64,000 nt of DNA, taken from positions 135,674 to 199,673 of the forward strand of contig JAHJTE010000003.1 in the NCBI GenBank assembly GCA_018830005.1. Reading direction: 5' to 3'. Position 1 is the first letter of the stretch; the number at the start of each line of letters is the position of its first letter. This document shows positions 5,638 through 47,893 of this stretch, piece after piece. A program made the translations under genes and the position numbers. Below the pieces are notes generated by a model. The model made no database searches and was not told the origin of the DNA. It saw only the letters and a program-made list of their open reading frames with translations. Source of the stretch: Candidatus Omnitrophota bacterium (GTDB lineage: Bacteria > Omnitrophota > Gorgyraeia > JAHJTE01).

Positions 5638-5645
5638 GTGGAATT

Positions 5646-6872: not shown

Positions 6873-6885
6873 GATTAGTGTAATT

Positions 6886-12564: not shown

Positions 12565-12984
12565 GTGGGGCTCCGTTTGAAGTGGCTCCCCGAGCGAGAC
12601 TCGAAGCGAACAATAAGGCGTGTCGTAACTGATGAATTGCCATACCATTACAGATGGCACAATAAAACAAAAACTCTATTTCGGGGCAAAAAGCCGGATT
12701 TTATTCCAAGAGGCAAGATTGTTTCAAAGAAAGAACTGCGGCATTACAAGTATTTGCAGGAGTATAAAAACCCGATTAAGAAGGCGATGGGATTTCAGCG
12801 GATCATGCAGGAAGAAAACCTGAACCAAGGACAACTGGCAAAAAAAATGGGAATATCACGAGTAAGAATAACTCAAGTATTAAACCTGCTCAAGCTACCA
12901 CAAGAACAACAGACTTACGTTTTGGAATATGGTAAAAAAGAACAAATAACCGAAAGAATGTTAAGAGAATCTCCGAACCATTAA
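12565..12984 (+). CDS. ParB-like HTH protein (truncated relative to full ParB)
   Basis: ENLNQGQLAKKMGISRVRITQVLNLLKLPQEQQ resembles the ParB/KorB HTH. The N-terminal ParB nuclease-like domain is absent. Confidence 0.4.
   Translation: MGLRLKWLPERDSKRTIRRVVTDELPYHYRWHNKTKTLFRGKKPDFIPRGKIVSKKELRHYKYLQEYKNPIKKAMGFQRIMQEENLNQGQLAKKMGISRVRITQVLNLLKLPQEQQTYVLEYGKKEQITERMLRESPNH
12583..12608. repeat. degenerate att-like copy of tRNA 3' end (tggctccccgagcgagactcgaagcg)
   Basis: About 75% identical to the tRNA-Asn 3' segment tggctcccccgcgaggactcgaacc, in the same orientation. Confidence 0.45.
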
Positions 12985-20069: not shown

Positions 20070-20149
20070 ATGTCTGTAGATGTCAGCTCCCTATTTAATA
20101 ATTATGTTTATGGGCAGATTTTGAACTCTTGCGCTCCTCCTTCTTCAGT

Positions 20150-20165
20150 ATCTTTTCAGTGTAAA
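20150..20165 (+). promoter_or_regulatory. TTTTCAGTGYAAA motif copy 2 (34 nt upstream of ATG 20199)
   Basis: tcttttcagtgtaaac. Confidence 0.4.
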
Positions 20166-20198
20166 CCATTTATACCCTTCTGCTACTACTTTGATTTA

Positions 20199-27755: not shown

Positions 27756-27931
27756 ACAAACCAAAGATATTTATACTTAAACAACTCTTGTTTTCACACG
27801 CAAACAACTTTTTTCAATAGCACATTGAACCTTCTCAACTATGGGCTCAGAGCTCAGCCGGAGACTGGTTTAGTGTTCTATTGGTTGTTAAACAATATTT
27901 TTATATTGTGCGTTACTGTGAGGTGATGAAT

Positions 27932-29359
27932 ATGGCTGAAGACGATATTTATGGGAACAAAAGGCATTATGAGAATTTTAAGCAAAATATTAGGTATCTT
28001 ACTCTGCCACCTGATGTTTATCTTAAGGTAGTGCTGAGAGATCCAATAATCCCGTTAAGAGGTTCCAGAAGAAAATATTATTGTCTTAACAAGGCGAACC
28101 TCTCTTATTTTTACCAGATGGTTGAGTACTTGGAGGCAAAAGACATGTCTTATATCGCAAGGATGAGAATTCTTCGGGATATCCTGTTCATCTGCCACCA
28201 TGTCCCTAAAAACCTTGAAGAATGCACCAGGGAAGACATAAACAAGCTAATGGCACACGCCCACCGCAGTTATAAAACACCTTCCAGCAAAAACCACTTC
28301 ATCAAACACCTGAGATACATCTGGAAAATCCTATTTCCAGAAAAGGACTCGCACGGCAGAACAGAGGATACTATCACACCTTATCCCGTTAGGCACGTCT
28401 CTCCAAGCATCGATAAAAGCAGACAAAAAATACGCAAGGACAAATTCACAACACAAGAACTCCAAAACATAATCAGCTATTTCGGAAAAGACCCAAGAAT
28501 GCAAGCATACCTGACACTAGCCCTAGAAAGCCTCGGCAGGCCGCAAGAACTGCTTTACCTCCGAATAGGCAACGTCGAGATGCACGACAACTATGCCAAA
28601 ATCTTTCTTTCCGAACACGGCAAAGAAGGAACAGGCATACTTCAATGCATAGACAGCTACCCATACCTCCTTAAATGGCTTAACCAACATCCGCTAAAGA
28701 ACAACCCCCAAGCATTCCTCTTTGTAAACACGGGAACAACCAACACACTCGAACAATTCAAGCCAACAAACATAAACAAAATGCTGGCAAAAGCCGTTAA
28801 GGACCTCCGAATAAACAAGCCAATAACATGCTATAGCCTAAAAAGAAACGGCGTAACCCTAAGAAGGCTTAGAGGAGAAAGCGACATGGAAATACAGCAC
28901 GCCGCCAGATGGACAAGCACGCAAGTCCTGAAAACATACGACCAAAGCAGCCAAAACGAAGCCCTAAAGCTGCAACTCCAAAAAAGAGGCCTGATACCAG
29001 TAGCCACCGACAATAACCCTCTCACAAACAAGAAATGCGCCTTCTGCAACACCGTAGCCGGCAGCACAGACATCACCTGCCCGCAATGCAAGCGCCCACT
29101 AGACAGGAAACACGTAATCGAGGAAACAAAAAAAGACGAGCAAATACAAAACCTAAAAGAAACAGTAAGCCAATTCACCAAGCAAATATCCACCATGAAA
29201 CAAGAAATACTACAAGACCTGGCAAAAGAAATACTACACAATCAGCAAGGCTACAGGCCGGACAACCGGGAAGACACGGGAAACTTTTCATCCAAGAGCT
29301 CCTCAAAAACACCCGTCAGCGACTTACCCTTAGAAACCTCGCGCTTCAAAGCCCTATAA
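27932..29359 (+). CDS. tyrosine-type site-specific recombinase with C-terminal zinc ribbon
   Basis: C-terminal H..R...Y-like block (HAARWTSTQVLKTYD) and CAFCN...CPQC. Start at MAEDD with SD gaggtga. Confidence 0.5.
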   Translation: MAEDDIYGNKRHYENFKQNIRYLTLPPDVYLKVVLRDPIIPLRGSRRKYYCLNKANLSYFYQMVEYLEAKDMSYIARMRILRDILFICHHVPKNLEECTREDINKLMAHAHRSYKTPSSKNHFIKHLRYIWKILFPEKDSHGRTEDTITPYPVRHVSPSIDKSRQKIRKDKFTTQELQNIISYFGKDPRMQAYLTLALESLGRPQELLYLRIGNVEMHDNYAKIFLSEHGKEGTGILQCIDSYPYLLKWLNQHPLKNNPQAFLFVNTGTTNTLEQFKPTNINKMLAKAVKDLRINKPITCYSLKRNGVTLRRLRGESDMEIQHAARWTSTQVLKTYDQSSQNEALKLQLQKRGLIPVATDNNPLTNKKCAFCNTVAGSTDITCPQCKRPLDRKHVIEETKKDEQIQNLKETVSQFTKQISTMKQEILQDLAKEILHNQQGYRPDNREDTGNFSSKSSSKTPVSDLPLETSRFKAL

Positions 29360-30207: not shown

Positions 30208-31734
30208 TCAATAGTTCTTGTAGAATGCTTCCGCGGTGAATTTCATGAATTCGTCTTTTTTATCAATACTTCTGCTTATTACTTGCCAAGGTTCCAATCT
30301 GGCTATTTCTGTTTGAAGGTCCTTAGCGGTTTTTGTGTTGCACCCGAGGATTTCTTGGACGGATGATGACGAAACTCCCTCGCATTGAAAAATAAAGGCA
30401 AATTCTAGGAGTTCTTGGAAATTAAAGAATTTTTGTTGGTAGTCGTTTGGTGATTGGCTGGCGAAGAATACGACGACCCCTTTTGATCTGCCTTCTCGGA
30501 TTATTTTTTCAAGGAAGATATTTTTTTGGCCCAGATAATTATGTGCTTCATCAAATACTAGGATCGTTCTTATAGTTCGCCTATTGTTTTCGACGGGGCT
30601 ATCAGGCATGGTTGTCATTTCTTTGTATAGTCTTTCTATTACTAGGTATGCCACTAATTCCTTAAGCACTGGCATTGTGTGGACGTCTATTAGTAATGTT
30701 CGGTCTGTCAGTCTTTCTATTGGTGGAATTTCTGATCCGTGGGACCAGAATAGGTCAAAGTCAGATAGGTCTCTTAACACTTCTATAAGACTGTCATCAC
30801 GTTTTCCTTGTTCTTCATAGGTGATGCGGGCTATTTCGTAGACATCTCTAAAGTCTGGGTATGGTTTATCGGTGTTGGCTCTTCGGGAATAAGCTGCGCG
30901 GATTGTTTCTGTTAAAGCGCCTTTTTGGACTACTCCTAATTTAGAGTTTATGGAAGCAAAACTTTCTGCTTTTTCTCTTGCGGATACATTTATTGTTTGT
31001 TCGTCATATGCCGGCAGAATAAATGGATTTATGGGTAATGTTTGGGCTCCCTGCAGCAAACGATAAAGCTGAACCTTCGAATTGTCTAGGAACTTCTGGT
31101 TGTCTCCAACATCACCCTTATAATCAAAATAAATAAAGTTTGTTTGGAAATTTGACTGTAAACGAATATCTGTAAGAATCTTTAGAAGAAACTGAGTCTT
31201 CCCAACCCCAGGCTTCCCCATAATCGCCAAGTGAGAATTCGCATGAATATTTGTGTTGTTTAACTCTATAACAACATCAGATTTTTGCAATAGCGTCTTT
31301 CCAAGCAGAATTTCGAATCCCTTCCCAAGCATTTCCTTCCTTCCTTTAAACTCGACTTTGGAAACTAATTTCTTTATTAGCAGGTCTGCATTATTTCCGC
31401 ATTCTTCGAATATTCTTTGAAGCTTGATACTGCCATTATCTATATGGTTCTTCACAATTGATTTATTTGAGTAAAAATTTTCGTCGTTTATATCTGCTCG
31501 ATGATATACGGAACTTATTAATGTCTTAAGAAACACCTCATCAGCACCGATAAAGGTTGGTCGTTTAATTTCTGCACCGCTAAAATCTGTGTTTTCAGCG
31601 ACTTTTACTCCATCTTCTGTCAGAGAAAGCATGAACGCTATTCTAGCTAGTATATATTTCTCTAATTTTGTTTCCAGACGTAACGCACTCAATATCTCGT
31701 CTGTATCTCTTGATGTGTATAGTCTATCGGCCAT
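30208..31734 (-). CDS. HerA/FtsK-like (DUF87-type) P-loop ATPase
   Basis: Walker A AIMGKPGVGKTQFL. Walker B VFDEAHNYLG. FASQSP motif. Confidence 0.55.
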   Translation of the reverse strand: MADRLYTSRDTDEILSALRLETKLEKYILARIAFMLSLTEDGVKVAENTDFSGAEIKRPTFIGADEVFLKTLISSVYHRADINDENFYSNKSIVKNHIDNGSIKLQRIFEECGNNADLLIKKLVSKVEFKGRKEMLGKGFEILLGKTLLQKSDVVIELNNTNIHANSHLAIMGKPGVGKTQFLLKILTDIRLQSNFQTNFIYFDYKGDVGDNQKFLDNSKVQLYRLLQGAQTLPINPFILPAYDEQTINVSAREKAESFASINSKLGVVQKGALTETIRAAYSRRANTDKPYPDFRDVYEIARITYEEQGKRDDSLIEVLRDLSDFDLFWSHGSEIPPIERLTDRTLLIDVHTMPVLKELVAYLVIERLYKEMTTMPDSPVENNRRTIRTILVFDEAHNYLGQKNIFLEKIIREGRSKGVVVFFASQSPNDYQQKFFNFQELLEFAFIFQCEGVSSSSVQEILGCNTKTAKDLQTEIARLEPWQVISRSIDKKDEFMKFTAEAFYKNY

Positions 31735-31736
31735 GC

Positions 31737-33725
31737 TTAGTCCTCCCAGAAATAGCCGGTTCTAACGGTTGTAAGTTCTTGCTTAGAATCGAACTCTAGT
31801 TTTGCTGCTCCTGCAAGATGATTTGAGAGATTTCGATAATAATTCTTGTCTATTTCTGTATCCGTTGAAAGAATAATAACTTGTTCCCCTGCATTTGGGA
31901 AGTAGTTATTGACAATATTATCTCTGTGAGTACTATCTAGCCTTGATAGAGGAGTGTCAATTATGATAGGAAGCTTTAGTTGGCTTGTTTGGGCCAATCC
32001 CCACAGTAACGAAACGGCAAATACTTCTTTTTCTCCTGCAGAAAGTCCTGACTTCCTTATTTCATGGCCATTACGGTCAATAATTCTGATTTCATAGGTT
32101 TTGTCATCTATATTAATGTCTTTTATCAATCCGCCTTTACTGGATAGCAGCTTATACATTTCAAAGGTTTTCTCTTGAAGCAAGTGTACTTTATTTTTCC
32201 TTAGACGAACGACAAACTGGTTCAAAAGATTGGAGATAGCGTCACATTCTGAAATAAAATCTGCCTTGTCCTTTGAAAGGTGGTGTTTTTCATAAAGTTT
32301 CTCGATTTCTATTTCGATATCACGGATGCTATGGTCAATAGTCAATATCTCGTCTTCAATCATTCTAAGCTGCTCTGTTTTTCTCCCGATTTGAATGGAA
32401 CAATTTTCTATCTGGTCCTGAAGCATAGCAAATAATTCCCGTTCTGATTCGCTTGCCCCTTTCCCTCGACAAGAGCCTTCAATTTCTTTTATTTGAATTG
32501 TCAACTCCCTCTTTTCTTCTAAGAGAGGAGCAACCAAGAAGACATCACTTTTTTCTAGAGTTTCCATCTGATTCATCACTTTTGCAGAATCTCTTTCGGA
32601 GAGGCTAAGAACCTTTTCTACATGCGTCGAATCTCCTTCGCTAAGCAGTCGTTCAATGCGTCGTTCTAATTCCTTCATTTTCTCGATTGAAAGTTTTTCG
32701 CGATATATAGGTTCAGGTTCTTCAACTACTCGCACAATTTTCTTGGCAAGCTCTCCTGCGTGTTCACGAATTGCTTCGCCGTGATTAGTGTTGCGCTCTT
32801 TTTCAATTTGGGCCCTTACTTTATCGAAAAGTTTTCCAGCAAGTCCGAATGGCAGCGCTGATTCACATAGATGTTTTATTTCGCTATCTAGTTGGCTTAA
32901 CCTATTTGCTACCTGAATACGCCTTTTTTCATTCTGCCTGATAACATCTTTTGATTCTGGAGTTTCATGAAAGGCTGCTTGAAAACGTTTTTTTGCTTCT
33001 TCCTGTTGTTCAGTGAATTCTACAATTTCAGCCTTAATTTCGCCTTTTTCCGTACACTTTTTTTCTCGTTTGCTTTTTTCCCGTTTCAATTCACTTTGCT
33101 TGAATTCGAGGTCTGCATCAGAAATCTCGATGAAGCCTTTGCGTTCTTCTTGCTTAAGATAGGCCACATCACTTGCAAGCCTATTGATGTATTGGATGCC
33201 TAATGCCGCTTCTAAAGAAGTTTGTAAGCGAACTTCGGAATGGTCATCAGAAGCAATCTCTTGTATTTTTTCTCCATCAAAAAAGAAGAATTGAGTTATT
33301 CCTGGTGGAATCGCGGCACGAATATATTCTTGCCAAATATCTTTATTTTGCACGGTAACGCGTTTCCCGTCTTTTACTACGACGAGCCGTTCCGCTATGT
33401 CTTTTGATTTTGGATCTTCCACTGTCCCGGCTGACCATGTCCTTTTAATGATTAGTTCTGAACCGTCATCTTCTTCTATGGCGAGCTCAAAAGAAACTGC
33501 CGTGTTGTTCTTTGCTTTCTCTTTTCGGTTTATACAACGATATATTTCTTCGTTTTTTGCCCCATATAGGCAATAATTGACAGCCTCCATGATAGCCGTC
33601 TTACCCGACCCATTCATTCCTCCTATTAAAAAAATACTTTTTCCTTCTTCATTGTCTGGAAAAAGAATTTCTGTAGGAAATTGAAACGACTTATAGTTCT
33701 CAATTATTAACTTGCGTAGTTTCAT
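31737..33725 (-). CDS. SMC-like ABC ATPase (DndD/SbcC-like)
   Basis: N-terminal Walker A IGGMNGSGKTAIMEAV. Long coiled coil. Signature LSAGEKEVFAVSLL. Walker B LPIIIDTPLSRLD. 662 aa. Confidence 0.6.
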   Translation of the reverse strand: MKLRKLIIENYKSFQFPTEILFPDNEEGKSIFLIGGMNGSGKTAIMEAVNYCLYGAKNEEIYRCINRKEKAKNNTAVSFELAIEEDDGSELIIKRTWSAGTVEDPKSKDIAERLVVVKDGKRVTVQNKDIWQEYIRAAIPPGITQFFFFDGEKIQEIASDDHSEVRLQTSLEAALGIQYINRLASDVAYLKQEERKGFIEISDADLEFKQSELKREKSKREKKCTEKGEIKAEIVEFTEQQEEAKKRFQAAFHETPESKDVIRQNEKRRIQVANRLSQLDSEIKHLCESALPFGLAGKLFDKVRAQIEKERNTNHGEAIREHAGELAKKIVRVVEEPEPIYREKLSIEKMKELERRIERLLSEGDSTHVEKVLSLSERDSAKVMNQMETLEKSDVFLVAPLLEEKRELTIQIKEIEGSCRGKGASESERELFAMLQDQIENCSIQIGRKTEQLRMIEDEILTIDHSIRDIEIEIEKLYEKHHLSKDKADFISECDAISNLLNQFVVRLRKNKVHLLQEKTFEMYKLLSSKGGLIKDINIDDKTYEIRIIDRNGHEIRKSGLSAGEKEVFAVSLLWGLAQTSQLKLPIIIDTPLSRLDSTHRDNIVNNYFPNAGEQVIILSTDTEIDKNYYRNLSNHLAGAAKLEFDSKQELTTVRTGYFWED

Positions 33726-34360
33726 AGATGTTCCTCGCTAAGTTCCCAAATTCCTCGAGGCGAATTGTTCTTTAGTGTGCCATCTTGCGTCATTCGATAT
33801 CGTTCCCAATTAGTGTTATTCTGCCATATGTAATCATTTGTTGCTTTACGCCATTCGAGGTCTCGTGGCAAGAGCTTGCCGTCTAACATTTTTTCAATCT
33901 CTTCTCGGACCTTTCGTCCAGGTGCCGAGCCTCCCAATCTTTTCAAGGCTTTGATAATGAGTTCGCGAAGCACAGCTCCCTCAGTTTTAGGTGCACGTGA
34001 GTGAGTGCGTTTTTTCTTGCCCCTATTGTTTAGCGAATCACTTCCTCCTATGCGCTGCCTCAACTCGTTAACAATATCTTCAAATTCGTCAGCAAGATGA
34101 CCAAATAATTTGTCTGCATTATTGGGGCCGCTTAAGGCCGCTATCAACCTAGACTTTTCTGAACGAAGCGCATCTGGTACAGCTACATTTGCCTTTTCAA
34201 GTCGCTTAATGGTCTTGGTAATCTCCTGTAGTTGCTTCTCACGCTCTCTTATTTCACTTTTTTGCACGCTACTATCAAGATGCTTAATTACTTCTCGGCA
34301 AAGCTTTACGAGCAAAGTATGGTCTTTCAAATAAGGGGTAACATCTGGAGTAACGCTCAT
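33722..34360 (-). CDS. coiled-coil protein with C-terminal Mrr_N-like winged helix
   Basis: LRELIIKALKRLGGSAPGRKVREEIEKML...SPRGIWELSEE follows the Mrr_N pattern. Confidence 0.45.
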   Translation of the reverse strand: MSVTPDVTPYLKDHTLLVKLCREVIKHLDSSVQKSEIREREKQLQEITKTIKRLEKANVAVPDALRSEKSRLIAALSGPNNADKLFGHLADEFEDIVNELRQRIGGSDSLNNRGKKKRTHSRAPKTEGAVLRELIIKALKRLGGSAPGRKVREEIEKMLDGKLLPRDLEWRKATNDYIWQNNTNWERYRMTQDGTLKNNSPRGIWELSEEHL

Positions 34361-34551
34361 TAGCCGGCACCTTCGTTTGTCTCAAAATTGGTCTTCATAA
34401 TCTCACGCAAAGCATCGTAAATCCCTGCTCTGCGATCTTTAAATTCGTGTTCCTGAACGGTCTCAAGGAGCTTGATTACTTTATCAAAATTGACCTCGTG
34501 CTGACGGCAAAGGTCCTGCAAGAGTGTTTTGTCTTCATTTGTTAGATTCAT
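34360..34551 (-). CDS. small hypothetical protein (operon member)
   Basis: 63 aa. Start/stop overlaps on both sides. Confidence 0.3.
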   Translation of the reverse strand: MNLTNEDKTLLQDLCRQHEVNFDKVIKLLETVQEHEFKDRRAGIYDALREIMKTNFETNEGAG

Positions 34552-35936
34552 TTCTGCACCGCCTCTTCAATAAGATCCTCAACATGACGCTTGGCTGTTT
34601 CAAGTAGATTTTGAGATTCCCTAAGCGCCTGTTTAGATTGAATAACCAAATCAGCCAACTTATCCCTTTTACTTTTTGATAATAAGGGTATCTTCAATTT
34701 TTTTATAGATCCTAGTTTCCAATGTACAATTAAAGCACCTGAACATTCTCTTTCGATTTGCATGCGGCATGCTTTTGAATTGATTGCTAAAGCTAAATAT
34801 TCAGGAGAAATTGAAGGATCAATTATTGATAATCTAACTATTCCACTCGAAATTATACCATCTAAAAGAGTATCTAAACAGTAGCATACACCTGGTGTTC
34901 CATCCTTCGTCAGAAGCAATTCCCCTACTGCTGGCTTAAAAGCTGCTAGAGATTTAAATAAGCTATCGGAAATATATTTATCGCTGCTACCCGTGATAAT
35001 TCCCATCTCTTTCATGTTGCTTACTCTTGCAAAAAGTTTTCCTGAATCAGTATACTTTCCGCTGCCGACTTCTATACCTTTTGAAAAAGTGGCAATCTTT
35101 GAAAGAGGAATCGTTTGAATAGACGTCAAGTGGCTTTCAATCTGACGAAACGCAATCTGATAATAATCCGCATCTGCTCGATTGTTTCCCACTACCTCCG
35201 ACAGCCTTGCCTCATATGACAGCGGCTTGTCAAAGACAAGCTTGTCCAGCTCCAACTCGCTTTCCAGAAGCTCCTGCGCCTGAGCGTATAGGGATTTGGA
35301 GCTATCTAAAAGGGCAAATGATTTTTGTATTAAACTACCGATTTTATCTTGCAGAGATATAGGAGGGCTTGGTATTAAAATGCGTTCAACCTCACGACAG
35401 TTTAAATTTACCTGTTCAGTTTGGCGGGAATGTCTCCAAAGCTGGTCTCTACCCATTTTGATTTGCAAATAAGCAGTCAAATAATAAGGATTTAAGGAAT
35501 TACTAGTCTTTATAATAGCAACATTTTGATTTGTTACTCTCTTAGGGTCAACAGATCTGATTATTGCAGCACGACCAACAATCTCATGAGTTGCACCTAT
35601 TATTGTTACAACAACACTGTCATCGTTAATATAGTCCTTAGGCGATAAAGCGTACTCTGGAATAAAGTCACAATTATCGTAATCTATACGCCCCTCACGT
35701 AATGTATTGGTCTTAATAAAATGAACAGTGGAGTCATTTTTAGTTATTCTCCGGTTTCGTGGTGTTCTTCCAGTTCGCACTGGTTCAGATATCATTTTAG
35801 AAAGCCGTTTGACATCATACTTTTGTGAAAATGATTTCCAAACTGAATCTTCCCAGAGATAATGGGGTTTATAAAATTCACTATCAATTCTTGTATACTG
35901 AATGTCGGATATTTTTACTTCACTCCAAACAGCCAT
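34548..35936 (-). CDS. hsdS: HsdS-like DNA specificity subunit (two TRDs)
   Basis: RIDSEFYKP is a conserved S-subunit motif. 462 aa. Confidence 0.6.
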   Translation of the reverse strand: MAVWSEVKISDIQYTRIDSEFYKPHYLWEDSVWKSFSQKYDVKRLSKMISEPVRTGRTPRNRRITKNDSTVHFIKTNTLREGRIDYDNCDFIPEYALSPKDYINDDSVVVTIIGATHEIVGRAAIIRSVDPKRVTNQNVAIIKTSNSLNPYYLTAYLQIKMGRDQLWRHSRQTEQVNLNCREVERILIPSPPISLQDKIGSLIQKSFALLDSSKSLYAQAQELLESELELDKLVFDKPLSYEARLSEVVGNNRADADYYQIAFRQIESHLTSIQTIPLSKIATFSKGIEVGSGKYTDSGKLFARVSNMKEMGIITGSSDKYISDSLFKSLAAFKPAVGELLLTKDGTPGVCYCLDTLLDGIISSGIVRLSIIDPSISPEYLALAINSKACRMQIERECSGALIVHWKLGSIKKLKIPLLSKSKRDKLADLVIQSKQALRESQNLLETAKRHVEDLIEEAVQK

Positions 35937-38710
35937 TATTCCGTCCTCCAGAAGTCGAATTTTTGTTTTAATGCAAATTTGACAAAGGATTCGGCTATGC
36001 AGAGTTTGTCTTCTGATAATTTTTTTGCGTTGGCAAGGTCTTCTGGTGTTAAGTTGAAGTTGACCAAATCCTGATTAATCATTGGTTGCCCTTCTTGGGG
36101 GTGACCATTTGGAAATTCGATTAGGTTTCCGTCTTCATCGATTAGGTGCTCGTAGTCTCCAGAATTATTTTTACCACCCCGTTCACTCACAGCCATAAAA
36201 ATAGAATAGTCCAATTTCTTAGCAACTTCAGCGTCGATGTAGCGGTTTTTAAGTGTTCCAATAAGGTCACTATCTAATAACACAAGTTCCAGCTTTCCGC
36301 GAGTAGTTAGGGCTTTTAGTTCGTATTCTGCTTGAGGTATTGCTTTTTCCAACGCTTTAATTTCAGCTTTAAGTCGTTTCTGTTGACCTTTTATCTTTTC
36401 TTTAAGCTTTTTTTCTTCTGCCCTGCTATTTTCTTTTAGCTTTTTCTTTTCTGCGCTCAGCTCTCCATTGGTTCCTTTCCATCCTTTTTCTAATGCCTTT
36501 ATTTCAGTTTGTAATTTCAGTCTTACTGCTTCTATGTCCGATTCCGTGTCAGAAAGTTTTTGTTTGGCTTTAATTAGTTCGCTTTTTAACGAGTTGAGCT
36601 TTTCTTCGGCTTCCTCTTTTTTCTCTTCAATACTTAAGGGATTGACATCCTCTTCACTTTCCTTAACGTCTTCGACTTCGTTTTCTTCATTTGTTTCGTT
36701 AATATGGTCAGCTTCTTCCTGTTCACTAAAGGTTTCTAGTAATAAATCCGCAATTGCTTCAGGAATGACGTCTTCAGGTATATCCGTTGCTTTCTGATAT
36801 TTCTTAAGCAATGAATTAATGATTGCTTCGTAATCGGGGCAGGATGCGGCTATGGCCTGTTTTGCTTTTTCAATTTTTGCCAATTCGTCTTCAGTATATT
36901 TCTGCACGAATAGTACTGATGTTTTGGTGCCTGTATGAGGTTTAAAAGTATTCTGATGAAGTCCCACAACTGCTAAGAGTCGAGCCTTTCGGAGTATCCA
37001 TTCTCGAATAAATGCCAGTGATGAGTTGTTGAATTTTCCTTGCGGAAGGACAATTCCTGCGCGCCCTCCCGGTCTTAAAAATTTCAGTATTCGTTCAATG
37101 AATAGAACGTCTCGTTCTTCCTTTGCTTGCTTGTCTTTAGCTCTCTTGAGCGCTGGTTTTGCGAGGTCATAGTGAGCAAGCATTTTCTTGTCTTTCATTT
37201 CTCCTGCAAATGGGGGATTTGCAAGGACGACATCAAACTTTAATTCGTCAAAGTATTTCCATGCGAGGTCTTCTTCTTTAAGAAGATTTGATTCATCTTG
37301 AGCTATTAATCTATTTTTAAGTAGTTTGGCGTCTTTGAGGCCTTGCATGAGTTTTTGGCCTGATTGTGTGCTGTACCATGTTTTTGGGTCTAGACTATTT
37401 ACGTCTGGTCCAAAGATATTGGTGTGACCGTCGCCAGCGATGAGCATTAATGCACGTGATGTCTTTGCGGCTCGCATTTCGAAATCGATTCCCCAAAGGT
37501 ATTTTGATGCATAACGGTGTTTGCGGAGTTCGCGCTGTGCAGTGCCGGCTGCTGGATAGCACCATTCCATAGCGTGGATTAGAAATCCTCCTGAACCACA
37601 TGCGGGATCCATGACGTATTCGTCTTTTTTTGGATTGAGCATTCGAACACACATTTCAACGACGTGCCGTGGCGTGAAAAATTGTCCTTTTTTCTTTTTT
37701 GCTTCTGTCGGTAGCAAGTATTCAAAAGCGTCATCCATAATCCTGAGGTTTGAGCCTAGTAGTCTTACCCCTTCAATGGGACCTACGCAAACTTGCAGGT
37801 GGTCTTTTCGAAGTTTAATATCCTCGTTTTCGTCAAATATGCCTGGCCATTCTTCACTTGATTTATGGAATAGTTTATTGATGCGGTCATAGGTTATTTC
37901 TGGGTCTATTGACTTCCTGAATTCGACTTCTTGATTCCTTCTTTTGGGGTTTTCTACGGCTTCTTTTTCATCCCATATCTTAGCGAAAATAAGTTTAAAT
38001 ATTTCGTTGAATTCGTCGACTCCGCTGTCTGCCAAAACAAGTTCTTCCAAATCTTGAACTATTTTTTTGAAATTAAAACTCTTTTTGAGGTGGGCTAATG
38101 TTTTCTTTGCTTCAAGTACATCTTTTGGTTCCTGGCCTCTGCGAGGTATGTCAAATAGGGTGTCGTCAAATTCTTTTGGATATGGACGATATAGTATGAT
38201 ACTGTCGCTTCCATTCGACCATACACCAACGGGTGAGCCTTCAGCATTTAAATAACTCTTAAGCTGTTCAATTCCGTCTTTGCGTTTTGGCTTTTTAACT
38301 TCAACTATAATTTTGGGTGTTTGCTTTGTTGAATCAGTATAAACGATGATGTCGGCAGCTTTCGTGTTAACTTCAGTCCCAAATTGAACGGACTTTTCCA
38401 GCTCTATCTCTTCTGGTTTATATTCATAGGAATATATGAGCTTGTACACCCAAAGCTGCCTTACTATTTCTTCAGGATGGGATTTGCCATCAGCTGAATA
38501 AACAAGAACTTCTTCTTTGCCTGAAGAAAAGGGTATCATGCTTTTAACATAATATTTTGTTTTTCCTGCCTCGCGCCCTGATTCGACTACTTTAGGGTAA
38601 ATCTTGATTATTTCGTGTATTGGTTTTTCTAAATTCTCAAATTCTGTTAATTCATACTGAGTTTTAGGATCTTTAAAAACCTTATCTAGCACTTCTTTTG
38701 TGTTCATCAT
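35936..38710 (-). CDS. N6-adenine DNA methyltransferase with N-terminal HSDR_N-type nuclease-like domain and C-terminal coiled coil
   Basis: DPACGSGGFL (motif I) and LANPPFAGEM (NPPF motif IV). N-terminal ADIIVY...IIVEVKKPK...GVWSNG resembles HSDR_N (PD-(D/E)xK). 924 aa. Confidence 0.65.
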   Translation of the reverse strand: MMNTKEVLDKVFKDPKTQYELTEFENLEKPIHEIIKIYPKVVESGREAGKTKYYVKSMIPFSSGKEEVLVYSADGKSHPEEIVRQLWVYKLIYSYEYKPEEIELEKSVQFGTEVNTKAADIIVYTDSTKQTPKIIVEVKKPKRKDGIEQLKSYLNAEGSPVGVWSNGSDSIILYRPYPKEFDDTLFDIPRRGQEPKDVLEAKKTLAHLKKSFNFKKIVQDLEELVLADSGVDEFNEIFKLIFAKIWDEKEAVENPKRRNQEVEFRKSIDPEITYDRINKLFHKSSEEWPGIFDENEDIKLRKDHLQVCVGPIEGVRLLGSNLRIMDDAFEYLLPTEAKKKKGQFFTPRHVVEMCVRMLNPKKDEYVMDPACGSGGFLIHAMEWCYPAAGTAQRELRKHRYASKYLWGIDFEMRAAKTSRALMLIAGDGHTNIFGPDVNSLDPKTWYSTQSGQKLMQGLKDAKLLKNRLIAQDESNLLKEEDLAWKYFDELKFDVVLANPPFAGEMKDKKMLAHYDLAKPALKRAKDKQAKEERDVLFIERILKFLRPGGRAGIVLPQGKFNNSSLAFIREWILRKARLLAVVGLHQNTFKPHTGTKTSVLFVQKYTEDELAKIEKAKQAIAASCPDYEAIINSLLKKYQKATDIPEDVIPEAIADLLLETFSEQEEADHINETNEENEVEDVKESEEDVNPLSIEEKKEEAEEKLNSLKSELIKAKQKLSDTESDIEAVRLKLQTEIKALEKGWKGTNGELSAEKKKLKENSRAEEKKLKEKIKGQQKRLKAEIKALEKAIPQAEYELKALTTRGKLELVLLDSDLIGTLKNRYIDAEVAKKLDYSIFMAVSERGGKNNSGDYEHLIDEDGNLIEFPNGHPQEGQPMINQDLVNFNLTPEDLANAKKLSEDKLCIAESFVKFALKQKFDFWRTE

Positions 38711-38829
38711 AAATCAACCTCTTTGTATATCGTGTGTTATATTTACTCGCCTCTCACTTATTAATAGCTATAAATTATTTCAGCATTAATAAACTTTGGC
38801 AGTGTTTGTAGCCTTTCTTAATATTTCTT

Positions 38830-40398
38830 CTATAACTGTAATTTGAAAAGTTTCTTTAGTACTTTCTGCACGGTTTCTTGATAATCTTCAATTTGGCGTT
38901 CATCAATTCCTACTGTGGCGCGTTCATGAATTAGTTTACATCGCAATCCGTAGTAGTGGTTAATCTTTTTCCAGAGTTTCTCGCTAATCTTGACGTATTT
39001 TTTTATTTCTTTCTCAACTTTATGCCTTGCATTAAACAGGTCTAACAATTCTCTGTCCGTATAGTGATGTCTCGATTCATTGACCAAATACTCTTTAAAT
39101 GCGATTTCTAGGGTGCTATCTAATAATATCAGGCAGATGCGGTTCTTTTGCTCTAGCTTTTGATGATAGATGATATCTACAGCAATCATTCCTTCATAAA
39201 GACCGCTTGTCCAAGGTTTATCCTTTGCAATCTTTCGATTAGCTTGCTTAATAATGTCACTATATCTTAAGTTGGCTTTAGGCAAAGGGGGGAGATATGA
39301 CCTTTTTGCCTCCGGAAAATTGTCTATCTTCTTTGCCACAATATGTCCGGAAGGATATTTAAAAACTTTGTCTGACCAGTCGCCCTCCCATCTCCTAGAA
39401 AGTGACGCAAAATCTTTCACAACCTGAACAAGCCAACCACGCAACGCAACAAAAATTGGATGATTTTGATTAATCCCTGACTTACTGCTATTCCATGGCA
39501 TTAAGTCAGCCTCTCCTTTAAGCGAAACAATGACTCTGGTGAGGGAAATGCTGGGATGCGGTCGTCCTGCTAATCCTTTTGTAAAACCAACTTCATAATT
39601 TTTGAGAGCTTTCGCAATTAATCGGTCATTACAGTAGAAGTAGACCCCATACTCACCACTAGCAGGACTTGACTCCATGCTGAGACCAGCAAGAACCTCA
39701 ACTTTAACAACCTTACCTTCTGCGCTTGGTAAATCACCATGATACCTATGTGGTAAATACTCCGGAGGGTATGCCCAATTTTCAAAGATATGTGGTTTTA
39801 AAACGTCTGCATTAAGCTGAATTTTTAACTGCTTATTAAATAAAAATTTGGCGTAGGTAGCTTCTAAATGCTCTCTAAGGTATTTGAGACTACCATCGGT
39901 TATTACAAAACGAAGTTTATGAAGTTCAATTCTAGTAGTTCCTTCAGTTATCTGATCAACCTCATAAACAGGTAGCTCCCAATCATCATTATCAAGCCAA
40001 GTTTCATCAAATTCTATACTATAAGTTTTTTCTTTAGCATACCGAGTTATTATTCGTATATCCTGAGACAAAGCTACAACCGCCCTTTTGCTTCCAACTC
40101 CAAAAATCCCTATTGTCTCATCTGTTGGCAAATTACTAGTCTGCCCGGGCCCAACAATTAAATTAAGTTCGGATTTCTTAATTCCCCCGGCACTATCAGA
40201 AACATTAATCAACTGCCTGTCTTTATCAATATCTATATGGATTTCTAAAGACCTCTTTCTGCCGATTTTCACCCATATATCAAGGGCATTATCAATTAGC
40301 TCACAAATGGAGCGATTAAGGTCATAATCCGCAATAATGGAAAGAAATATCCTTTTAGAAGGGACAGCATCTATCGTATCTACTTCTTTCTTTACCAA
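38830..40398 (-). CDS. GHKL-family ATPase (MORC/paraMORC-like)
   Basis: Bergerat-fold motifs ELIDNALD, SDSAGGI and GIFGVGSKRA. Confidence 0.55.
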   Translation of the reverse strand: MVKKEVDTIDAVPSKRIFLSIIADYDLNRSICELIDNALDIWVKIGRKRSLEIHIDIDKDRQLINVSDSAGGIKKSELNLIVGPGQTSNLPTDETIGIFGVGSKRAVVALSQDIRIITRYAKEKTYSIEFDETWLDNDDWELPVYEVDQITEGTTRIELHKLRFVITDGSLKYLREHLEATYAKFLFNKQLKIQLNADVLKPHIFENWAYPPEYLPHRYHGDLPSAEGKVVKVEVLAGLSMESSPASGEYGVYFYCNDRLIAKALKNYEVGFTKGLAGRPHPSISLTRVIVSLKGEADLMPWNSSKSGINQNHPIFVALRGWLVQVVKDFASLSRRWEGDWSDKVFKYPSGHIVAKKIDNFPEAKRSYLPPLPKANLRYSDIIKQANRKIAKDKPWTSGLYEGMIAVDIIYHQKLEQKNRICLILLDSTLEIAFKEYLVNESRHHYTDRELLDLFNARHKVEKEIKKYVKISEKLWKKINHYYGLRCKLIHERATVGIDERQIEDYQETVQKVLKKLFKLQL

Positions 40399-40407: not shown

Positions 40408-40590
40408 CTATGAAACAATGTTACTCCTGCTCTTAATAAAGCTTTCCAAGTCCTCGGGATAAACCCGCCACCTGCCAATCTTTGTTGCCTTTATCTGCTT
40501 GGCCTTGATTAGGTCGCGCACCCATTTCTCGGTTACGTCCAGTTTCTTAGAGACTTGTTTTACTGTGAAATATTTTTTTAGGTCATCCAT
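40408..40590 (-). CDS. xis: excisionase/AlpA-family HTH protein
   Basis: 60 aa: FTVKQVSKKLDVTEKWVRDLIKAKQIKATKIGRWRVYPEDL. Confidence 0.5.
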   Translation of the reverse strand: MDDLKKYFTVKQVSKKLDVTEKWVRDLIKAKQIKATKIGRWRVYPEDLESFIKSRSNIVS

Positions 40591-43757: not shown

Positions 43758-44360
43758 ATGGAAGAATCGCAATACGCTAAAGACTACGAATTTGCTCAAC
43801 ACTGCATAAAAAACAGTGACTTTGATGAATTCTACAAACGCTACAAAGCAAACATAGAAAAAACTATTAAAAAAAGATTGTACGGAGAAATGGCAACCTA
43901 CCTAGAAGACATAAGCCAAGAAATCATAATGTACCTACTCTACAAAGGCGGACTTGGAAAATATCAAGGCAGATCTCGACTAAGTACATGGCTGTTCGTA
44001 GTAGTAAGGGGACGCACCATAGACTTCATCAGAAACATCACGAGACACAAAGAATCATCATATGACCCGGTAGTACTTAATGGCAAAGCAAAAAAAGACA
44101 GGTCAGTAACTCGCAAACTCATAGAAGAAGAAACCACAAGCCTTGTCTGGAAAACACTAAAAGAAATGCGAGATACGTGGAATCTTCAAAAAACGGTATT
44201 TATGGAAAAACACCACCTCGAACGACTCACATATAAACAAATCGGGCAGATGTTCAACATAAAACAGACAACAGTATACAACCACATACTCAAAGCAGAA
44301 GATAAGTTTAGAGAACTGTTTAGCGACCTAAATCCGGATTACGAGGAGGAACAAATATGA
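43758..44360 (+). CDS. sigma-70 family (ECF-type) RNA polymerase sigma factor
   Basis: Region 2 (STWLFVVVRGRTIDFIR). Region 4 HTH (LTYKQIGQMFNIKQTTVYNHILKA). Confidence 0.55.
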   Translation: MEESQYAKDYEFAQHCIKNSDFDEFYKRYKANIEKTIKKRLYGEMATYLEDISQEIIMYLLYKGGLGKYQGRSRLSTWLFVVVRGRTIDFIRNITRHKESSYDPVVLNGKAKKDRSVTRKLIEEETTSLVWKTLKEMRDTWNLQKTVFMEKHHLERLTYKQIGQMFNIKQTTVYNHILKAEDKFRELFSDLNPDYEEEQI

Positions 44361-45070
44361 ATAAATTATGCAAAATAAGCGGGCACCTCATACGATTCTA
44401 CCCCCATCTCCCCGAGAAGCTAATGCAACACATTCACAGCTGTGCGGAATGCAGCGAAAAACTAAAAACAATAAAGCTATTTGCAAAACTGCAAGGAGAC
44501 AAACCAGACTACGCCAAGATAGAAAAAGCACCCACCTGCCCCGATGACAACACCTTCGCAGCACTCCTTGACGGACAACTTCAAGGGAAAGAATTGCAAA
44601 AAATGGAAAGCCACCTCCTCAACTGCGCCCAGTGCTTCCACATAGCCGCAGAATACATCAAAGAACACCAACCAGCAACAGAAACCATAGAGCAACTGCT
44701 GGCAGATGCAGAACCAAGCCTTGAGGCAGCAGCTCTCTTGGACAAAGTTCGCGGGCTAAGCGAAGCATTCATCAACAAGTATTATCCGGCTATGCAGGAA
44801 TGGTTTGATGGCGCATTCGGAGCGATAAGAGAAAGTATCTTGGCAGGAGAACAACTGGCAACAGTTCCAGTAAGGGGAATGGGTTTCTCTCAGAATAAGC
44901 AACAAATAATTGCGAAGACAGTGCTGATAATGCAGGAAGTCCTCAAAGAAGCCAAGCCGGACTGGACACGCGAGCAATACAAGAAATGTATCGAAAAACA
45001 GTGCAAAAAACTCAAGGCCGACAGAAAACTGAAAAACGCTCTACTGGAATATTGTGAGCACCTTAAATAA
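44357..45070 (+). CDS. putative zf-HC2 anti-sigma factor
   Basis: HxxxCxxC motifs (HIHSCAECSEKL, HLLNCAQCFH). Immediately follows the sigma gene and overlaps it. Confidence 0.4.
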   Translation: MNKLCKISGHLIRFYPHLPEKLMQHIHSCAECSEKLKTIKLFAKLQGDKPDYAKIEKAPTCPDDNTFAALLDGQLQGKELQKMESHLLNCAQCFHIAAEYIKEHQPATETIEQLLADAEPSLEAAALLDKVRGLSEAFINKYYPAMQEWFDGAFGAIRESILAGEQLATVPVRGMGFSQNKQQIIAKTVLIMQEVLKEAKPDWTREQYKKCIEKQCKKLKADRKLKNALLEYCEHLK

Positions 45071-45076
45071 AAAACC

Positions 45077-47893
45077 ATGTCTATTTCAGTTGAAACATTC
45101 AACTTCCTTTATTGCACCATTCTTTTCATTTTAATCGCATGGCATGGATTCTCAAAAAAATCCGTAACTATCGACCTTAGCGAATCTTCAATAAGAATTA
45201 TCCTAGCCTATATCGTAACGGGGCTTATAATGACAAGCTCGCTCATAACCATTGCCCATTCCACCTTCATTCTCAACATGCGAATACCCACGAATCACCG
45301 ACTGCTTCTAGCCGCGCTACCATGCCTCATATTAGTTACAACCCTGCTTGTCAGCTTAGTAAGGCTGTCAAAATATCTCAAAAAAATTATACGGACATCC
45401 AAAGATTACGAAGACGCAGAAATAGTTGAAAAAGCCAATGACCTATCCGATGCGATAGGCTTGCCAAAAGCACCAACCATCCTCTTTGCAAAAGAAAAAA
45501 ACCGAACACCCGAAGTCCAATCTTACCCGTTACTCAGGAAAAGCTTTGTGATATTCCCCTCTAACTTACGACAATACATCGAAAGGTTTATGACAAAAGA
45601 AACCGGGATAGAACCCACAGATGCAAATTGGAAAAAACACTATGAAACATTTCGCGATTTTATAATTCTTCACGAGCTATCACACATAAAAAACAAGGAC
45701 ACCAGCTACTGGACACACTCATCGTCGCTTATAACTCAAAGTATCCTCTGGTTTCTGGCGTCTGTGATACTCTCTGCTCACGTATATTTTGGCAAAATAA
45801 ATAAGTTTGGCATCTCACCCCTCACTTCTATATCAGGCATAGCATTACTCTTTTTGCTAACAGCATCATTTAGACGAACAAGGGAATACCTGTCTGACGC
45901 CTCAGCCATGCTCTACCTCTCTTATAGTAAAAGCAACTTGTTGTCCCAAAAAAAGCCGGGCACAAACAAAACGCTAATAGAAACTTTCCTGAATTGGCAC
46001 GAACACCAACCCGAAACAGTAAGCCCTTCCCGCGGACCCGGCTTTTCCTCACTAAACAGGCTGGCACACCCCTCACACAAGAAGCGCTCGGAAGCTATAA
46101 CCAAACAAGAGTATATATCACCCAAAATCCCATACCCGACCAACGAATCAATTATTTTCATAGCAATACTAAATGTCATATTAACATATGCCCTGCTTGA
46201 AGGCATTGGACAATTCTTCACTCATTTCATGCCATTAAAAAGTGTTATCGACGGCTGGGCGGGCTCAACAACCTATATGATAGCCTTCATTACACCACCC
46301 TTATTAAGCGCCATGTTCTTAACCCTCCCAATAAAGAACACCATAAGCCCACTAAATAACATGAATACGTACCTTAAACCAATCGTTGTTAAAACGCTGA
46401 TTTTCACTGCAATCTCAACACTCACATTTATATTTTTAGGAAACACTACAAGAGCAATGGCATCTATTGCTGAATCCCGAGGCCCATATTTCTTCTGGTT
46501 CCTGACATCTTTCAGCGCGCTGACAGTCATAGCTGCCACACTTCTTCTTACATTAATAATATCCTTAGTTAACGAAACAAATCCTGCATCAAAAAAACTT
46601 CTTAAAACGCTATTAGCAGTAACACCCATTGTAATCGCATTCATAGTGGCGCCACCCCTGCTGCTGGGATTTCTTTTCAAACCCAATTATTTCCTTGCAA
46701 TATTCTCATTCGTAATCGCATATGGCATATGGCTACGCATACCTCCCAAGAAAAATATCATCATATGGGATGACCGCTCTTTTTACCCAAAAATATTCAA
46801 CCGCTCGATATGCTGCGAAGCTAAAGGACACGGCATATTATCCAGGCTTCGCTTTGCCGCACTTATAGCCCTTTTCGACTTCAGCATCCCTCTACTTTTA
46901 TGCATACCAATATATTTATTCCTCAACACCATTCTAGACAGCAACACACTCGAATTCACGAGAAACCTAATTAGCGCATCAAGATCATCAGAGCTGTACT
47001 CTTCCAAACAATTTATTATTCTCGCAGTTTTCTTCATAGGTGCTTTTTGGACGCTGTATGCCCGGGAAAAAGACCACATTCCATCCAAGATAGTTAACTG
47101 CTCTGAAATGATAGGCATATCCGAACTCGTCCAACACAAAGATTTCTCAAGAATCTATAAAACAATTCTTGCCAAGACCAAAAACCACTTGGAAAAAAAT
47201 AAATTCGTTGAATTCCCAAACAGCAACTTAGAAACCGCATATATCGCGTTTTGCGCAACAAACATCATCAAGCATGACACACATGAAACATCCCTAATAA
47301 AAGAACAAACGACACATTTCCTGACCTCACTTTACAACAACAAAGGAGGCTTTGGCGCAGCAAAAGGCGGGGAGCCCAGGCTAAGGGAAACATACTACGC
47401 GGTAGAAATAATCAGCGTGCTCCAGACCCTGAAAAGCATCGACAAGGACAAAATATCAGAATGGATAATATCATGCCAGAATATTAATGACGGCAATTTT
47501 GTCACACCGTACTTCGGCCAGCCAAGCATAGAAGAAACATTCTACGCGATTAACACTCTAAACCGTCTTTCATCCCACATCCCAAACTATGAAAAATGCA
47601 AACAATGGCTCCTGACAACATGGCGGAAAAAAGCCGACATCGAAAACACCTTCTACCTGACAAGCGCTCTCCCGCAACTTGAGCCCCAATACATCGAAGA
47701 AATCACAAAAAAATATCTTCACATAAACAATGACCGTTTTTTCCGATTCCGCTACGACAAGGACTTAAGAAAAATACGCATGCACCTGCATATAGCACGC
47801 CAGTGCTATGGGCTTAATTCAGACGAATTCAAGCAGTTAACCAAAAACACAGAAGAAGAAATTGAGAAAATAATAGCGTCGTCCCAATTTTAG
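45077..47893 (+). CDS. polytopic membrane protein: M48/M56-like HExxH peptidase + C-terminal prenyltransferase/terpene-cyclase-type repeats
   Basis: HELSHIKNKD in a membrane context. More than 12 TM. C-terminal repeats GGFGAAKGGEPRLRETYYAVEII and NDGNFVTPYFGQPSIEETFYAINTL. Confidence 0.45.
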   Translation: MSISVETFNFLYCTILFILIAWHGFSKKSVTIDLSESSIRIILAYIVTGLIMTSSLITIAHSTFILNMRIPTNHRLLLAALPCLILVTTLLVSLVRLSKYLKKIIRTSKDYEDAEIVEKANDLSDAIGLPKAPTILFAKEKNRTPEVQSYPLLRKSFVIFPSNLRQYIERFMTKETGIEPTDANWKKHYETFRDFIILHELSHIKNKDTSYWTHSSSLITQSILWFLASVILSAHVYFGKINKFGISPLTSISGIALLFLLTASFRRTREYLSDASAMLYLSYSKSNLLSQKKPGTNKTLIETFLNWHEHQPETVSPSRGPGFSSLNRLAHPSHKKRSEAITKQEYISPKIPYPTNESIIFIAILNVILTYALLEGIGQFFTHFMPLKSVIDGWAGSTTYMIAFITPPLLSAMFLTLPIKNTISPLNNMNTYLKPIVVKTLIFTAISTLTFIFLGNTTRAMASIAESRGPYFFWFLTSFSALTVIAATLLLTLIISLVNETNPASKKLLKTLLAVTPIVIAFIVAPPLLLGFLFKPNYFLAIFSFVIAYGIWLRIPPKKNIIIWDDRSFYPKIFNRSICCEAKGHGILSRLRFAALIALFDFSIPLLLCIPIYLFLNTILDSNTLEFTRNLISASRSSELYSSKQFIILAVFFIGAFWTLYAREKDHIPSKIVNCSEMIGISELVQHKDFSRIYKTILAKTKNHLEKNKFVEFPNSNLETAYIAFCATNIIKHDTHETSLIKEQTTHFLTSLYNNKGGFGAAKGGEPRLRETYYAVEIISVLQTLKSIDKDKISEWIISCQNINDGNFVTPYFGQPSIEETFYAINTLNRLSSHIPNYEKCKQWLLTTWRKKADIENTFYLTSALPQLEPQYIEEITKKYLHINNDRFFRFRYDKDLRKIRMHLHIARQCYGLNSDEFKQLTKNTEEEIEKIIASSQF

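Follow-up and report, generated by a model that had tools for sequence, protein, structure and literature searches.

The window analysed in this study, a stretch of 64,000 nucleotides from Candidatus Omnitrophota bacterium (contig JAHJTE010000003.1), carries on its minus strand a composite, putative defence cassette that is real, widespread and uncharacterised. All of its components are of known kinds and partly catalogued. Their conserved combination, in which a restriction-modification (RM) subunit and its specificity (S) subunit are joined with Dnd-derived ATPases, has no name. The cassette consists of six genes and splits into two modules, rm-s and sp-p212-dndD-dndE::herA. Throughout, p212 denotes the product of an open reading frame (ORF) of 212 amino acids (aa), EH denotes the DndE::HerA fusion protein, and residue numbers are those of the window's proteins unless stated otherwise.

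The arrangement of these genes is far beyond chance, because dozens of loci, drawn from many phyla, show it in collinear form. A genome scan anchored on EH, using one genome per GTDB species, yielded 75 loci, each from a different species-representative genome, throughout which EH is 62-83% identical. These loci are distributed over Desulfobacterota, Gamma-, Beta- and Alphaproteobacteria, Bacteroidota, Bacillota, Cloacimonadota, Nitrospirota, Planctomycetota, Spirochaetota, Acidobacteriota, Chloroflexota and others, and the order RM-S-Sp-(p212)-DndD-DndE::HerA is collinear over many of these phyla. A protein search gave 893 EH homologs, and a metagenome scan 284 RM loci; no relative of EH was found by a scan of the IMG/VR viral contigs. 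Several cultured strains, among them Thiocapsa sp. KS1 (locus L049), carry the cassette, which makes it testable.

Linkage was counted in both directions. Among the EH-anchored genome loci whose sequence reaches 6.5 kb or more beyond dndD on its upstream side, an RM homolog (at least 50% identity) was present in 33/39, S likewise in 33/39 and Sp in 38/39, the order being identical in every case. In an independent, RM-anchored metagenome sample of loci with at least 4.5 kb of downstream sequence, DndD was found in 32/33. These counts do not bear out the possibility, raised by an earlier first-pass annotation of the same DNA, that the two ATPases are independent neighbours of the methyltransferase and specificity genes. 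The components are also inherited together: pairwise identities correlate between RM and DndD (rho = 0.72), RM and EH (0.68), and DndD and EH (0.92), all with Mantel p = 0.001, and the three proteins are conserved alike at about 72-76%.

Seven ORFs, all on the minus strand, occupy positions 30208-40398 of the window, with the sizes given in the first-pass annotation. The most upstream one encodes a GHKL ATPase (522 aa, HATPase_c_3; 38830-40398). It is followed by rm, encoding a 924-aa bifunctional nuclease-methyltransferase, the BsaXI-like subunit of a Type IIB RM system (35936-38710), by s for a 462-aa HsdS-type specificity subunit with two target recognition domains (TRDs; 34548-35936), and by sp for a 63-aa 'Sp-DndD' protein (34360-34551). 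The series is completed by p212, encoding the 212-aa accessory protein (33722-34360), dndD for a 662-aa Rad50/SMC-like ABC ATPase (31737-33725) and dndE::herA for a 508-aa ATPase (30208-31734). The domain calls made earlier were all recovered with Pfam, PADLOC and NCBIfam, i.e., HSDR_N_2 and N6_Mtase, Methylase_S, a weak Mrr_N, DndD, HerA/DUF87 and GHKL.

Two further statements of that annotation hold in part. Stop/start overlaps had been read at every junction of the cassette; they occur at four of the five, namely RM to S (TAATG), S to Sp (ATGA), Sp to p212 (TAATG) and p212 to DndD (ATGA), but DndD and DndE::HerA are separated by a 2-nt spacer (TAAGCATG) with no overlap. Likewise, the locus had been described as a system of seven genes, with the GHKL gene about 120 bp upstream. 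The ORFs are present and the gap to rm measures 119 bp, but a GHKL gene is linked in 0/155 related loci; we therefore rejected it as a member, which leaves a system of six genes. A 102-aa ORF overlapping the end of dndE::herA was rejected as a gene as well, being of low complexity, unconserved and matched by neither p212 profile. A promoter and terminator scan gave no more sites than in shuffled sequence and thus says nothing on operon boundaries.

The first module starts with RM, which in a phmmer search against the PDB aligns with RM.BsaXI (8w0p, E=7e-32) over the nuclease, the methyltransferase (MTase) and the last beta-strand. Pfam identifies HSDR_N_2 (73 bits) and N6_Mtase (E=1e-35), and PADLOC gives MTase_I PDLC03034 (E=1.9e-151). 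The PD-(D/E)xK nuclease domain covers about residues 70-190 (38141-38503, minus strand). Its catalytic residues E105, D120, E137 and K139 align with E73, D90, E105 and K107 of BsaXI, alanine mutants of which lose cleavage (PMC11997821). The N6-adenine MTase core extends over about residues 321-610 (36881-37750, minus strand) and contains DPACGSGGF (368-376, motif I) and NPPF (498-501, motif IV). No variation occurs at the four nuclease residues or in NPPF among 108 homologs (28 full-length ones from genomes and 80 from metagenomes), in which motif I varies at two positions only. Mean pairwise identity reaches 81% in the nuclease and 85% in the MTase, and is 44% in the internal insertion (611-805).

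The adjacent S subunit matches Pfam Methylase_S and PADLOC Specificity_I (E=9.5e-37), many of the models matching it in two separate stretches. Its TRDs are hypervariable, at 23-27% mean identity as opposed to 70-85% for the neighbouring genes; we therefore place sequence specificity in S. The invariance of the nuclease catalytic residues and NPPF in the 108 homologs, together with the adjacent S, leads us to predict that rm and s already make up a complete Type IIB-like RM enzyme, from which no HsdR is missing.

Two cultured carriers show an interrupted rm. In locus L055 (Paracoccus sulfuroxidans CGMCC 1.5364) the gene (about 3111-5900) is broken by a TGA, in frame, where the codon of the conserved W405 should stand, and in L067 (Desulfobacter curvatus DSM 3379) it is split into 497 and 420 aa. 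These breaks may represent either an inactivated nuclease-bearing gene or a sequencing error.

The window was scanned for domains in all ORFs of at least 150 aa except two short ones (152 and 161 aa). Among these scanned ORFs, neither a superfamily 2 (SF2) helicase-nuclease nor DndA, a full DndC, a 3'-phosphoadenosine 5'-phosphosulfate (PAPS) reductase or a desulfurase was found, and the 75 genome loci contain no conserved helicase cluster. The first-pass annotation was hence right that an SF2 HsdR is absent, as far as these ORFs go, and that the HSDR_N domain on the MTase is the only nuclease-like module, i.e., the sole nuclease of the cassette. Its central idea, that the ATPases stand where HsdR would be, fails: RM is homologous lengthwise to RM.BsaXI and keeps the four catalytic residues, and close RM-S pairs also occur by themselves with intact active sites. 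Its statement that no DndABCE-type gene is present applies to DndA and full-length DndC, but not to DndE, a domain of which (PF08870) lies on the last gene, nor to the DndC tail, which persists as the 63-aa Sp. What was overlooked is that the ATPase half of the cassette is a remodelled Dnd module, composed of DndD, a DndE fusion and a DndC tail.

Sp matches Pfam PF20306 'Sp-DndD' with 40.1 bits. It aligns to the DndC models of PADLOC at positions 403-460/481 (E=9e-9) and by BLASTP to residues 450-504 of the 544 residues of Aliivibrio DndC (E=4e-6). Against TIGR03183 (DndC) it scores 23.4 bits (cutoff 290.4), just the C-terminal tail of about 55 aa remaining. Sp has a mean pairwise identity of 68%, is present in 50/52 loci, and segregates with DndD rather than with RM-S. 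For the system of E. coli B7A, AlphaFold3 modelling with pull-down tests indicated that DndC 433-482 binds the DndD head, that coiled-coil 1 of DndD binds the last DndC helix, and that coiled-coil 2 binds DndE (PMC12193691). A search for fusion partners of Sp with its profile, covering 1.84 billion representatives, gave 122 matches, nearly all of them free-standing small proteins. An Sp-like tail was found on one MTase fragment only, at the C-terminus of P0359 (192 aa, metagenome, Eco57I-type methylase). In addition, the PADLOC MTase_II model PDLC03333 matches Sp at the C-terminus of the model. Both matches hint that the DndD-docking tail may be fused to methyltransferases as well as to DndC.

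The SMC-like protein passes TIGR03185 with 381.7 bits (cutoff 245.85), is matched by the DndD model of PADLOC (E=4.8e-138), and can be aligned over its full length with a canonical DndD (28% identity, E=2e-70). Walker A (GGMNGSGKT, 35-43) and the signature motif (LSAGEKE, 562-568) are conserved in 51 homologs, and mean pairwise identity is 78-83% in the heads and 63% in the coiled coil. On these matches, we classify it as a bona fide DndD.

Residues 1-106 of EH (31417-31734, minus strand) form a DndE domain according to Pfam PF08870 (47.6 bits, cutoff 25) and PADLOC DndE (E=1.6e-8), with a score under the equivalog cutoff of TIGR03184 (43 versus 71.85). DndE has been proposed as the hypervariable specificity element of canonical Dnd systems (PMC10853773). 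Unlike that proposal, the DndE of these cassettes is not a hypervariable specificity element, its mean identity being 66%. The HerA/FtsK-type ATPase domain follows at about residues 141-508 (30208-31314, minus strand) with Walker A GKPGVGKT (173-180), Walker B D395/E396, the candidate arginine finger R416 in EGRSKG, and Q427, all of which are invariant in 30-63 homologs. This domain, with a mean pairwise identity of 80%, matches the C-terminal domain of DptH (PDB 7es4, E=1e-20), and in PADLOC EH matches the DndH C-terminus (E=2.2e-43) and mad8 (E=2.2e-20). We thus assign it by homology to the DptH/DndH clade. In DndD and EH alike, the Walker A/B, signature and sensor motifs are intact and conserved. 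An AlphaFold2 (AF2) model of EH, with a predicted local distance difference test (pLDDT) score of 57.5, was too low in confidence for a fold search and was set aside.

The remaining component, p212, is hypervariable, with a mean identity of about 29%. In its AF2 model (pLDDT 74.5), a helical, coiled-coil N-terminal part is joined by a disordered, basic linker to a winged helix at the C-terminus; a fold search returned generic winged-helix matches only (E>0.05). The window's copy has a weak Mrr_N match, and the C-terminal domains over 52 family proteins are Mrr_N in 16, DUF4357 in 11 and RAMA in 9. Upstream of dndD there are 0-3 copies in tandem, and 15 loci have a paralog downstream of dndE::herA. 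Tripled tandem copies occur in some Cloacimonadota, Bacteroidota and Desulfotignum loci (L041, L058, L059, L064). The downstream paralog is divergent, and Mrr_N and RAMA/DUF4357 replace one another as the C-terminal domain. Both Mrr_N and RAMA bind DNA and are associated with restriction enzymes of the methyl-dependent kind and with adenine methylases. Because the family carries these domains, a function of p212 as a reader of the DNA state or methylation state is plausible.

Taken together, we propose that the locus would be a mobile six-gene RM-type defence cassette based on N6-methyladenine (m6A) and built from two modules. By analogy with BsaXI, rm and s would form an (RM)2S assembly, in which S picks a bipartite site and RM would methylate adenines there on host DNA while also carrying the nuclease. 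Module 2 would be a Dnd modification machine stripped of its sulfur chemistry, with DndC shrunk to the DndD-docking peptide Sp. DndD would act as a Rad50-like, ATP-driven DNA clamp with Sp docked on its heads, and the DndE domain would dock on its coiled coil, thereby linking the clamp to a DptH-type HerA/FtsK ring translocase. This docking scheme is proposed because Sp aligns to the region of DndC that binds the DndD head, and because DndE binds coiled-coil 2 of DndD. The module as a whole would serve as an ATP-powered scanning or translocating engine that acts with the RM nuclease on unmethylated DNA, possibly by reeling in DNA or by uniting distant sites, and the hypervariable p212 would report the DNA or methylation state.

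The reading we tentatively prefer, at slightly less than even confidence, is that a Dnd-derived ATP engine and the RM nuclease act jointly to restrict unmethylated DNA. An engine serving restriction rather than methylation is favoured because of the analogy with MADS, the DptH ancestry of the HerA domain, and the lack of an effector in module 2, where searches with Pfam, PADLOC and NCBIfam gave neither a nuclease nor another recognisable effector. Methylation-based defence by MADS depends on a homologous HSDR_N-MTase (MAD2), on an S subunit (MAD5) and on a HerA-like ATPase (MAD8) alike (bioRxiv 10.1101/2023.03.30.534895). A more far-reaching version, possible but doubtful, is a new class of ATP-dependent restriction, in which (RM)2S would be driven by the DndD clamp and the HerA/FtsK ring, with DndE and Sp as tethers, instead of an SF2 HsdR, and in which p212 would recognise m6A and thereby halt the motor on self DNA. 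If true, such a class would be the functional counterpart, based on methylation, of the entire Dnd system (DndCDE and DndFGH), compressed into one operon. If the modules cooperate, the DndD-DndE 'scanning' core would be a transferable ATP engine, fit to be combined with an ordinary base-methylation restriction enzyme, and clamps of the SMC/Rad50 type and HerA/FtsK pumps could fill the role which SF2 motors have in Type I and Type III restriction. The cassette would then also offer a simpler, genetically tractable route to the action of DndD and DndE on DNA and to restriction by MADS-like multi-gene methylation systems.

Several observations speak against cooperation of the modules. RM-S pairs that are 68-72% identical to the pair of the window stand alone with intact catalytic residues. 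One is located on plasmid D of Trichormus variabilis ATCC 29413 (L076, 60-4198), where RM is 67.6% identical and parAB follow; another one, on the metagenome contig L092, is flanked by housekeeping genes. Since RM-S stands alone and Type IIB needs no ATP, module 1 does not strictly depend on module 2. Conversely, module 2 is occasionally found beside unrelated MTases, a Type II RM pair, or none: L039 has an unrelated 930-aa Eco57I-like MTase (4159-6951), L054 a Type II pair of an N6_N4 MTase and a TdeIII endonuclease (4556-7038), and L053 no MTase at all. The evidence for Sp fusions is thin, given that almost all matches of its profile are free-standing. Computational work furthermore treats the DndD-DndE core as a modification-targeting apparatus and not as a restriction engine (PMC10853773), and contact of RM or S with Sp, p212, DndD or EH is something that we infer.

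In the three loci where RM-S is replaced or missing (L039, L053, L054), Sp and p212 remain with DndD and EH, and both are absent from the stand-alone RM-S loci. Other copies of the cassette contain hitchhikers inserted exactly between S and Sp, namely RhuM, YhcG (PDDEXK), DarT with macro/DarG, and NOV_C. Coordinates of the hitchhiker and AIPR genes are 6137-7183 in L017, 5383-6435 in L008, 5469-7163 in L030, 6007-7200 in L011 and 11097-12866 in L003, the last locus having an AIPR protein downstream. A distant single-chain RMS relative (42%) on pAQ6 of Picosynechococcus PCC 7002 (L077, 11872-15411) is also without the ATPase module. Both this strain and T. variabilis are model cyanobacteria, which makes them convenient for testing RM-S by itself.

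The alternative that survives best assigns module 2 to the modification step. DndD and DndE(::HerA) would scan the host chromosome with ATP and recruit the RM-S adenine MTase in the place of DndC, with Sp as adaptor; the genome would be kept fully methylated and safe from the RM nuclease, and restriction would be the ATP-independent reaction of Type IIB enzymes. This is attractive in that Sp corresponds to the part of the Dnd modifying enzyme that docks on DndD, that module 2 also adjoins other MTases (L039, L054), and that Rakesh et al. propose that a DndDE core recruits alternative nucleobase modifications (PMC10853773). The occurrence of Sp-like tails on MTases may be counted in its favour too, although such tails are compatible with either a restriction engine or modification targeting. 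On the other hand, stand-alone RM-S with an intact nuclease persists without module 2, so that methylation is independent of module 2 there; the HerA domain comes from the clade used by the restriction protein DptH; and those accessory genes of MADS that were tested are needed for defence, methylation being credited to the MTase. On balance, modification targeting appears rather unlikely to us.

Less probable still, and in our view unlikely, is that two independent defence systems travel together, a Type IIB RM system and a 'HerA/FtsK capture' or ABC-ATPase system (Sp-p212-DndD-DndE::HerA) with a trigger of its own, linked by co-selection in defence islands only or by synergy without physical contact. 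Each module is indeed found without the other, and the hitchhikers RhuM, YhcG, DarTG and NOV_C sit precisely at the S/Sp boundary. However, neither a nuclease nor another recognisable effector belongs to module 2 itself, co-occurrence is 85-97% both ways with a fixed order and an ATGA overlap across the S to Sp boundary, and the histories of the modules are correlated. The weakest alternative is a role that is not primarily antiviral: the cassette would regulate epigenetically, or would secure the maintenance of the mobile element, for instance by addiction, with the HerA/FtsK pump and DndD acting in segregation or transfer of the element. In its favour, RM systems can act as addiction modules, and the island encodes an integrase, a serine recombinase, an Xis-like helix-turn-helix (HTH) protein and two FtsK/TrwB-like ATPases besides EH. 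It is nevertheless highly improbable, given that the cassette is not tied to a single type of element but occurs in many contexts, chromosomal ones among them, that S and p212 diversify in arms-race fashion, that known defence hitchhikers are embedded in it, and that no relative was found on IMG/VR viral contigs.

The surroundings of the cassette are a mobile island, as concluded from an integrase, an Xis-like HTH, a serine recombinase and extra FtsK/TrwB-like ATPases, which supports the placement on a mobile element beside Xis given in the first-pass annotation. The Xis-like HTH_17 ORF is located at 40408-40590 (minus strand) with the GHKL gene 10 bp downstream, and the tyrosine integrase at 27881-29359 (plus strand). 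Elsewhere in the window, likewise on the plus strand, are a large serine recombinase (53954-55606) and two more HerA/FtsK/TrwB-like ATPases (20070-21623 and 50166-52289), one with a topoisomerase zinc ribbon. No tRNA gene was found within the window and no plasmid match to the locus by megablast; the cassette looks as if it lies inside a large integrative or mobilisable element. Neither the GHKL gene, whose PADLOC result is just a marginal TmtA match, nor the HTH_17/Xis-like ORF adjoins the cassette in any of the 155 related loci, and the two may travel on the island as a separate pair of cargo genes. The window also encodes an unusual trio at 43758-47893 (plus strand), consisting of an ECF-type sigma factor, a zf-HC2 anti-sigma factor and a 938-aa protein that combines an M48 peptidase with a prenyltransferase-like alpha-alpha toroid, and, on the island as well, at 12981-15428 (minus strand), an 815-aa protein with DUF4238 and a SEC-C motif.

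With regard to known systems, neither PADLOC-DB v2.0 nor NCBIfam assigns the operon to a named one, as had been noted before; PADLOC-DB v2.0 gives matches at the level of components only, i.e., MTase_I, Specificity_I, the DndC tail, DndD, and the DndH C-terminus/mad8. BREX (PglZ, BrxC/PglY) and DISARM (DrmA, DrmB) were rejected, their core components being unmatched in PADLOC and NCBIfam; BREX-related matches are confined to weak ones of the PglX MTase domain (E=1e-11 to 1e-13). With the PbeABCD, or CxC-ABC ATPase, systems the cassette has in common that PbeC models of PADLOC match the window's DndD. The DndD models outscore PbeC, however, a CxC motif is not visible by eye in the coiled coil, and DndE is fused to HerA here. 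Since no HKD-SF2 helicase (PbeA) is present among the scanned ORFs, membership was rejected.

RhuM, YhcG and DarTG are common in Type I loci. These hitchhikers are shared by Type I systems (HsdMSR) and the cassette, as are an HsdS-type S, a gamma-class N6-adenine MTase and an HsdR-N-type nuclease fold. We rejected membership because an SF2 HsdR motor is absent among the scanned ORFs and the nuclease is fused to the MTase. Common ground with DndFGH/DptFGH is limited to the C-terminal HerA/FtsK ATPase domain of DptH, the cassette lacking DptF, DptG, and the N-terminal, inactive-DAM and restriction endonuclease (REase) regions of DptH.

Canonical Dnd systems share the full-length DndD, the DndE domain, fused to HerA in our case, and the DndC tail. 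In contrast to them, the cassette has no DndA, DndB or catalytic DndC, and its modifying enzyme would be an N6-adenine MTase that also bears a nuclease. Membership was rejected, as the scanned ORFs include neither a DndC PAPS-reductase-like sulfurtransferase nor DndA/IscS. The pairing of a DndD-related ATPase with DndE::HerA is mentioned in one sentence by Rakesh, Aravind and Krishnan (Nucleic Acids Research, NAR, 2024; PMC10853773), citing Krishnan et al. 2020. Beyond this sentence, the literature searched contains no description of the RM-S linkage, of the p212 family or of experiments; Krishnan et al. 2020 (NAR), the source of the name 'Sp-DndD', stood outside this comparison.

MADS (mad1-8) resembles the cassette in being methylation-based, in MAD2 and MAD5 as the best NCBIfam matches of RM and S, respectively, and in a HerA-like ATPase (mad8, E=2e-20), although this match of EH is distant and weaker than the one to DndH. 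RM and S score 267 bits with NF047738 (cutoff 720) and 140 bits with NF047740 (cutoff 400), respectively. Counterparts of MAD3, MAD4, MAD6 and MAD7 were not found, mad6 and mad7 being absent from the matches listed for the seven proteins (for DndD, the best 25 of 70 PADLOC families). MAD6, MAD7 and MAD8 are mandatory in the detection model of the MADS authors (bioRxiv 10.1101/2023.03.30.534895). Judged by its descriptions, MADS does not include DndD, DndE or Sp. We rejected membership because MAD6 and MAD7 are not among the matches listed and RM and S fall far under the equivalog cutoffs. MADS is antiviral by experiment, with accessory genes needed for defence.

For module 1, the closest likeness is with Type IIB enzymes (BsaXI; BcgI-like). 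Shared features are an N-terminal PD-(D/E)xK nuclease, a helical connector, an N6-adenine MTase with an insertion before the last strand, and a separate HsdS-type S, and close relatives of the window's RM-S exist as two-gene stand-alone systems. At the level of sequence, rm and s fall under the definition of Type IIB, with the nuclease residues E...D...E-x-K, a same-chain N6-adenine MTase with S-adenosylmethionine (AdoMet) and NPPF motifs, and a two-TRD S. The insertion/C-terminal region of RM is unlike that of BsaXI and is variable (44% identity). Type IIB enzymes cut to either side of a bipartite site and are ATP-independent, whereas the RM clade of the window is nearly always followed by four extra genes, including two for ATPases, a linkage atypical of the class.

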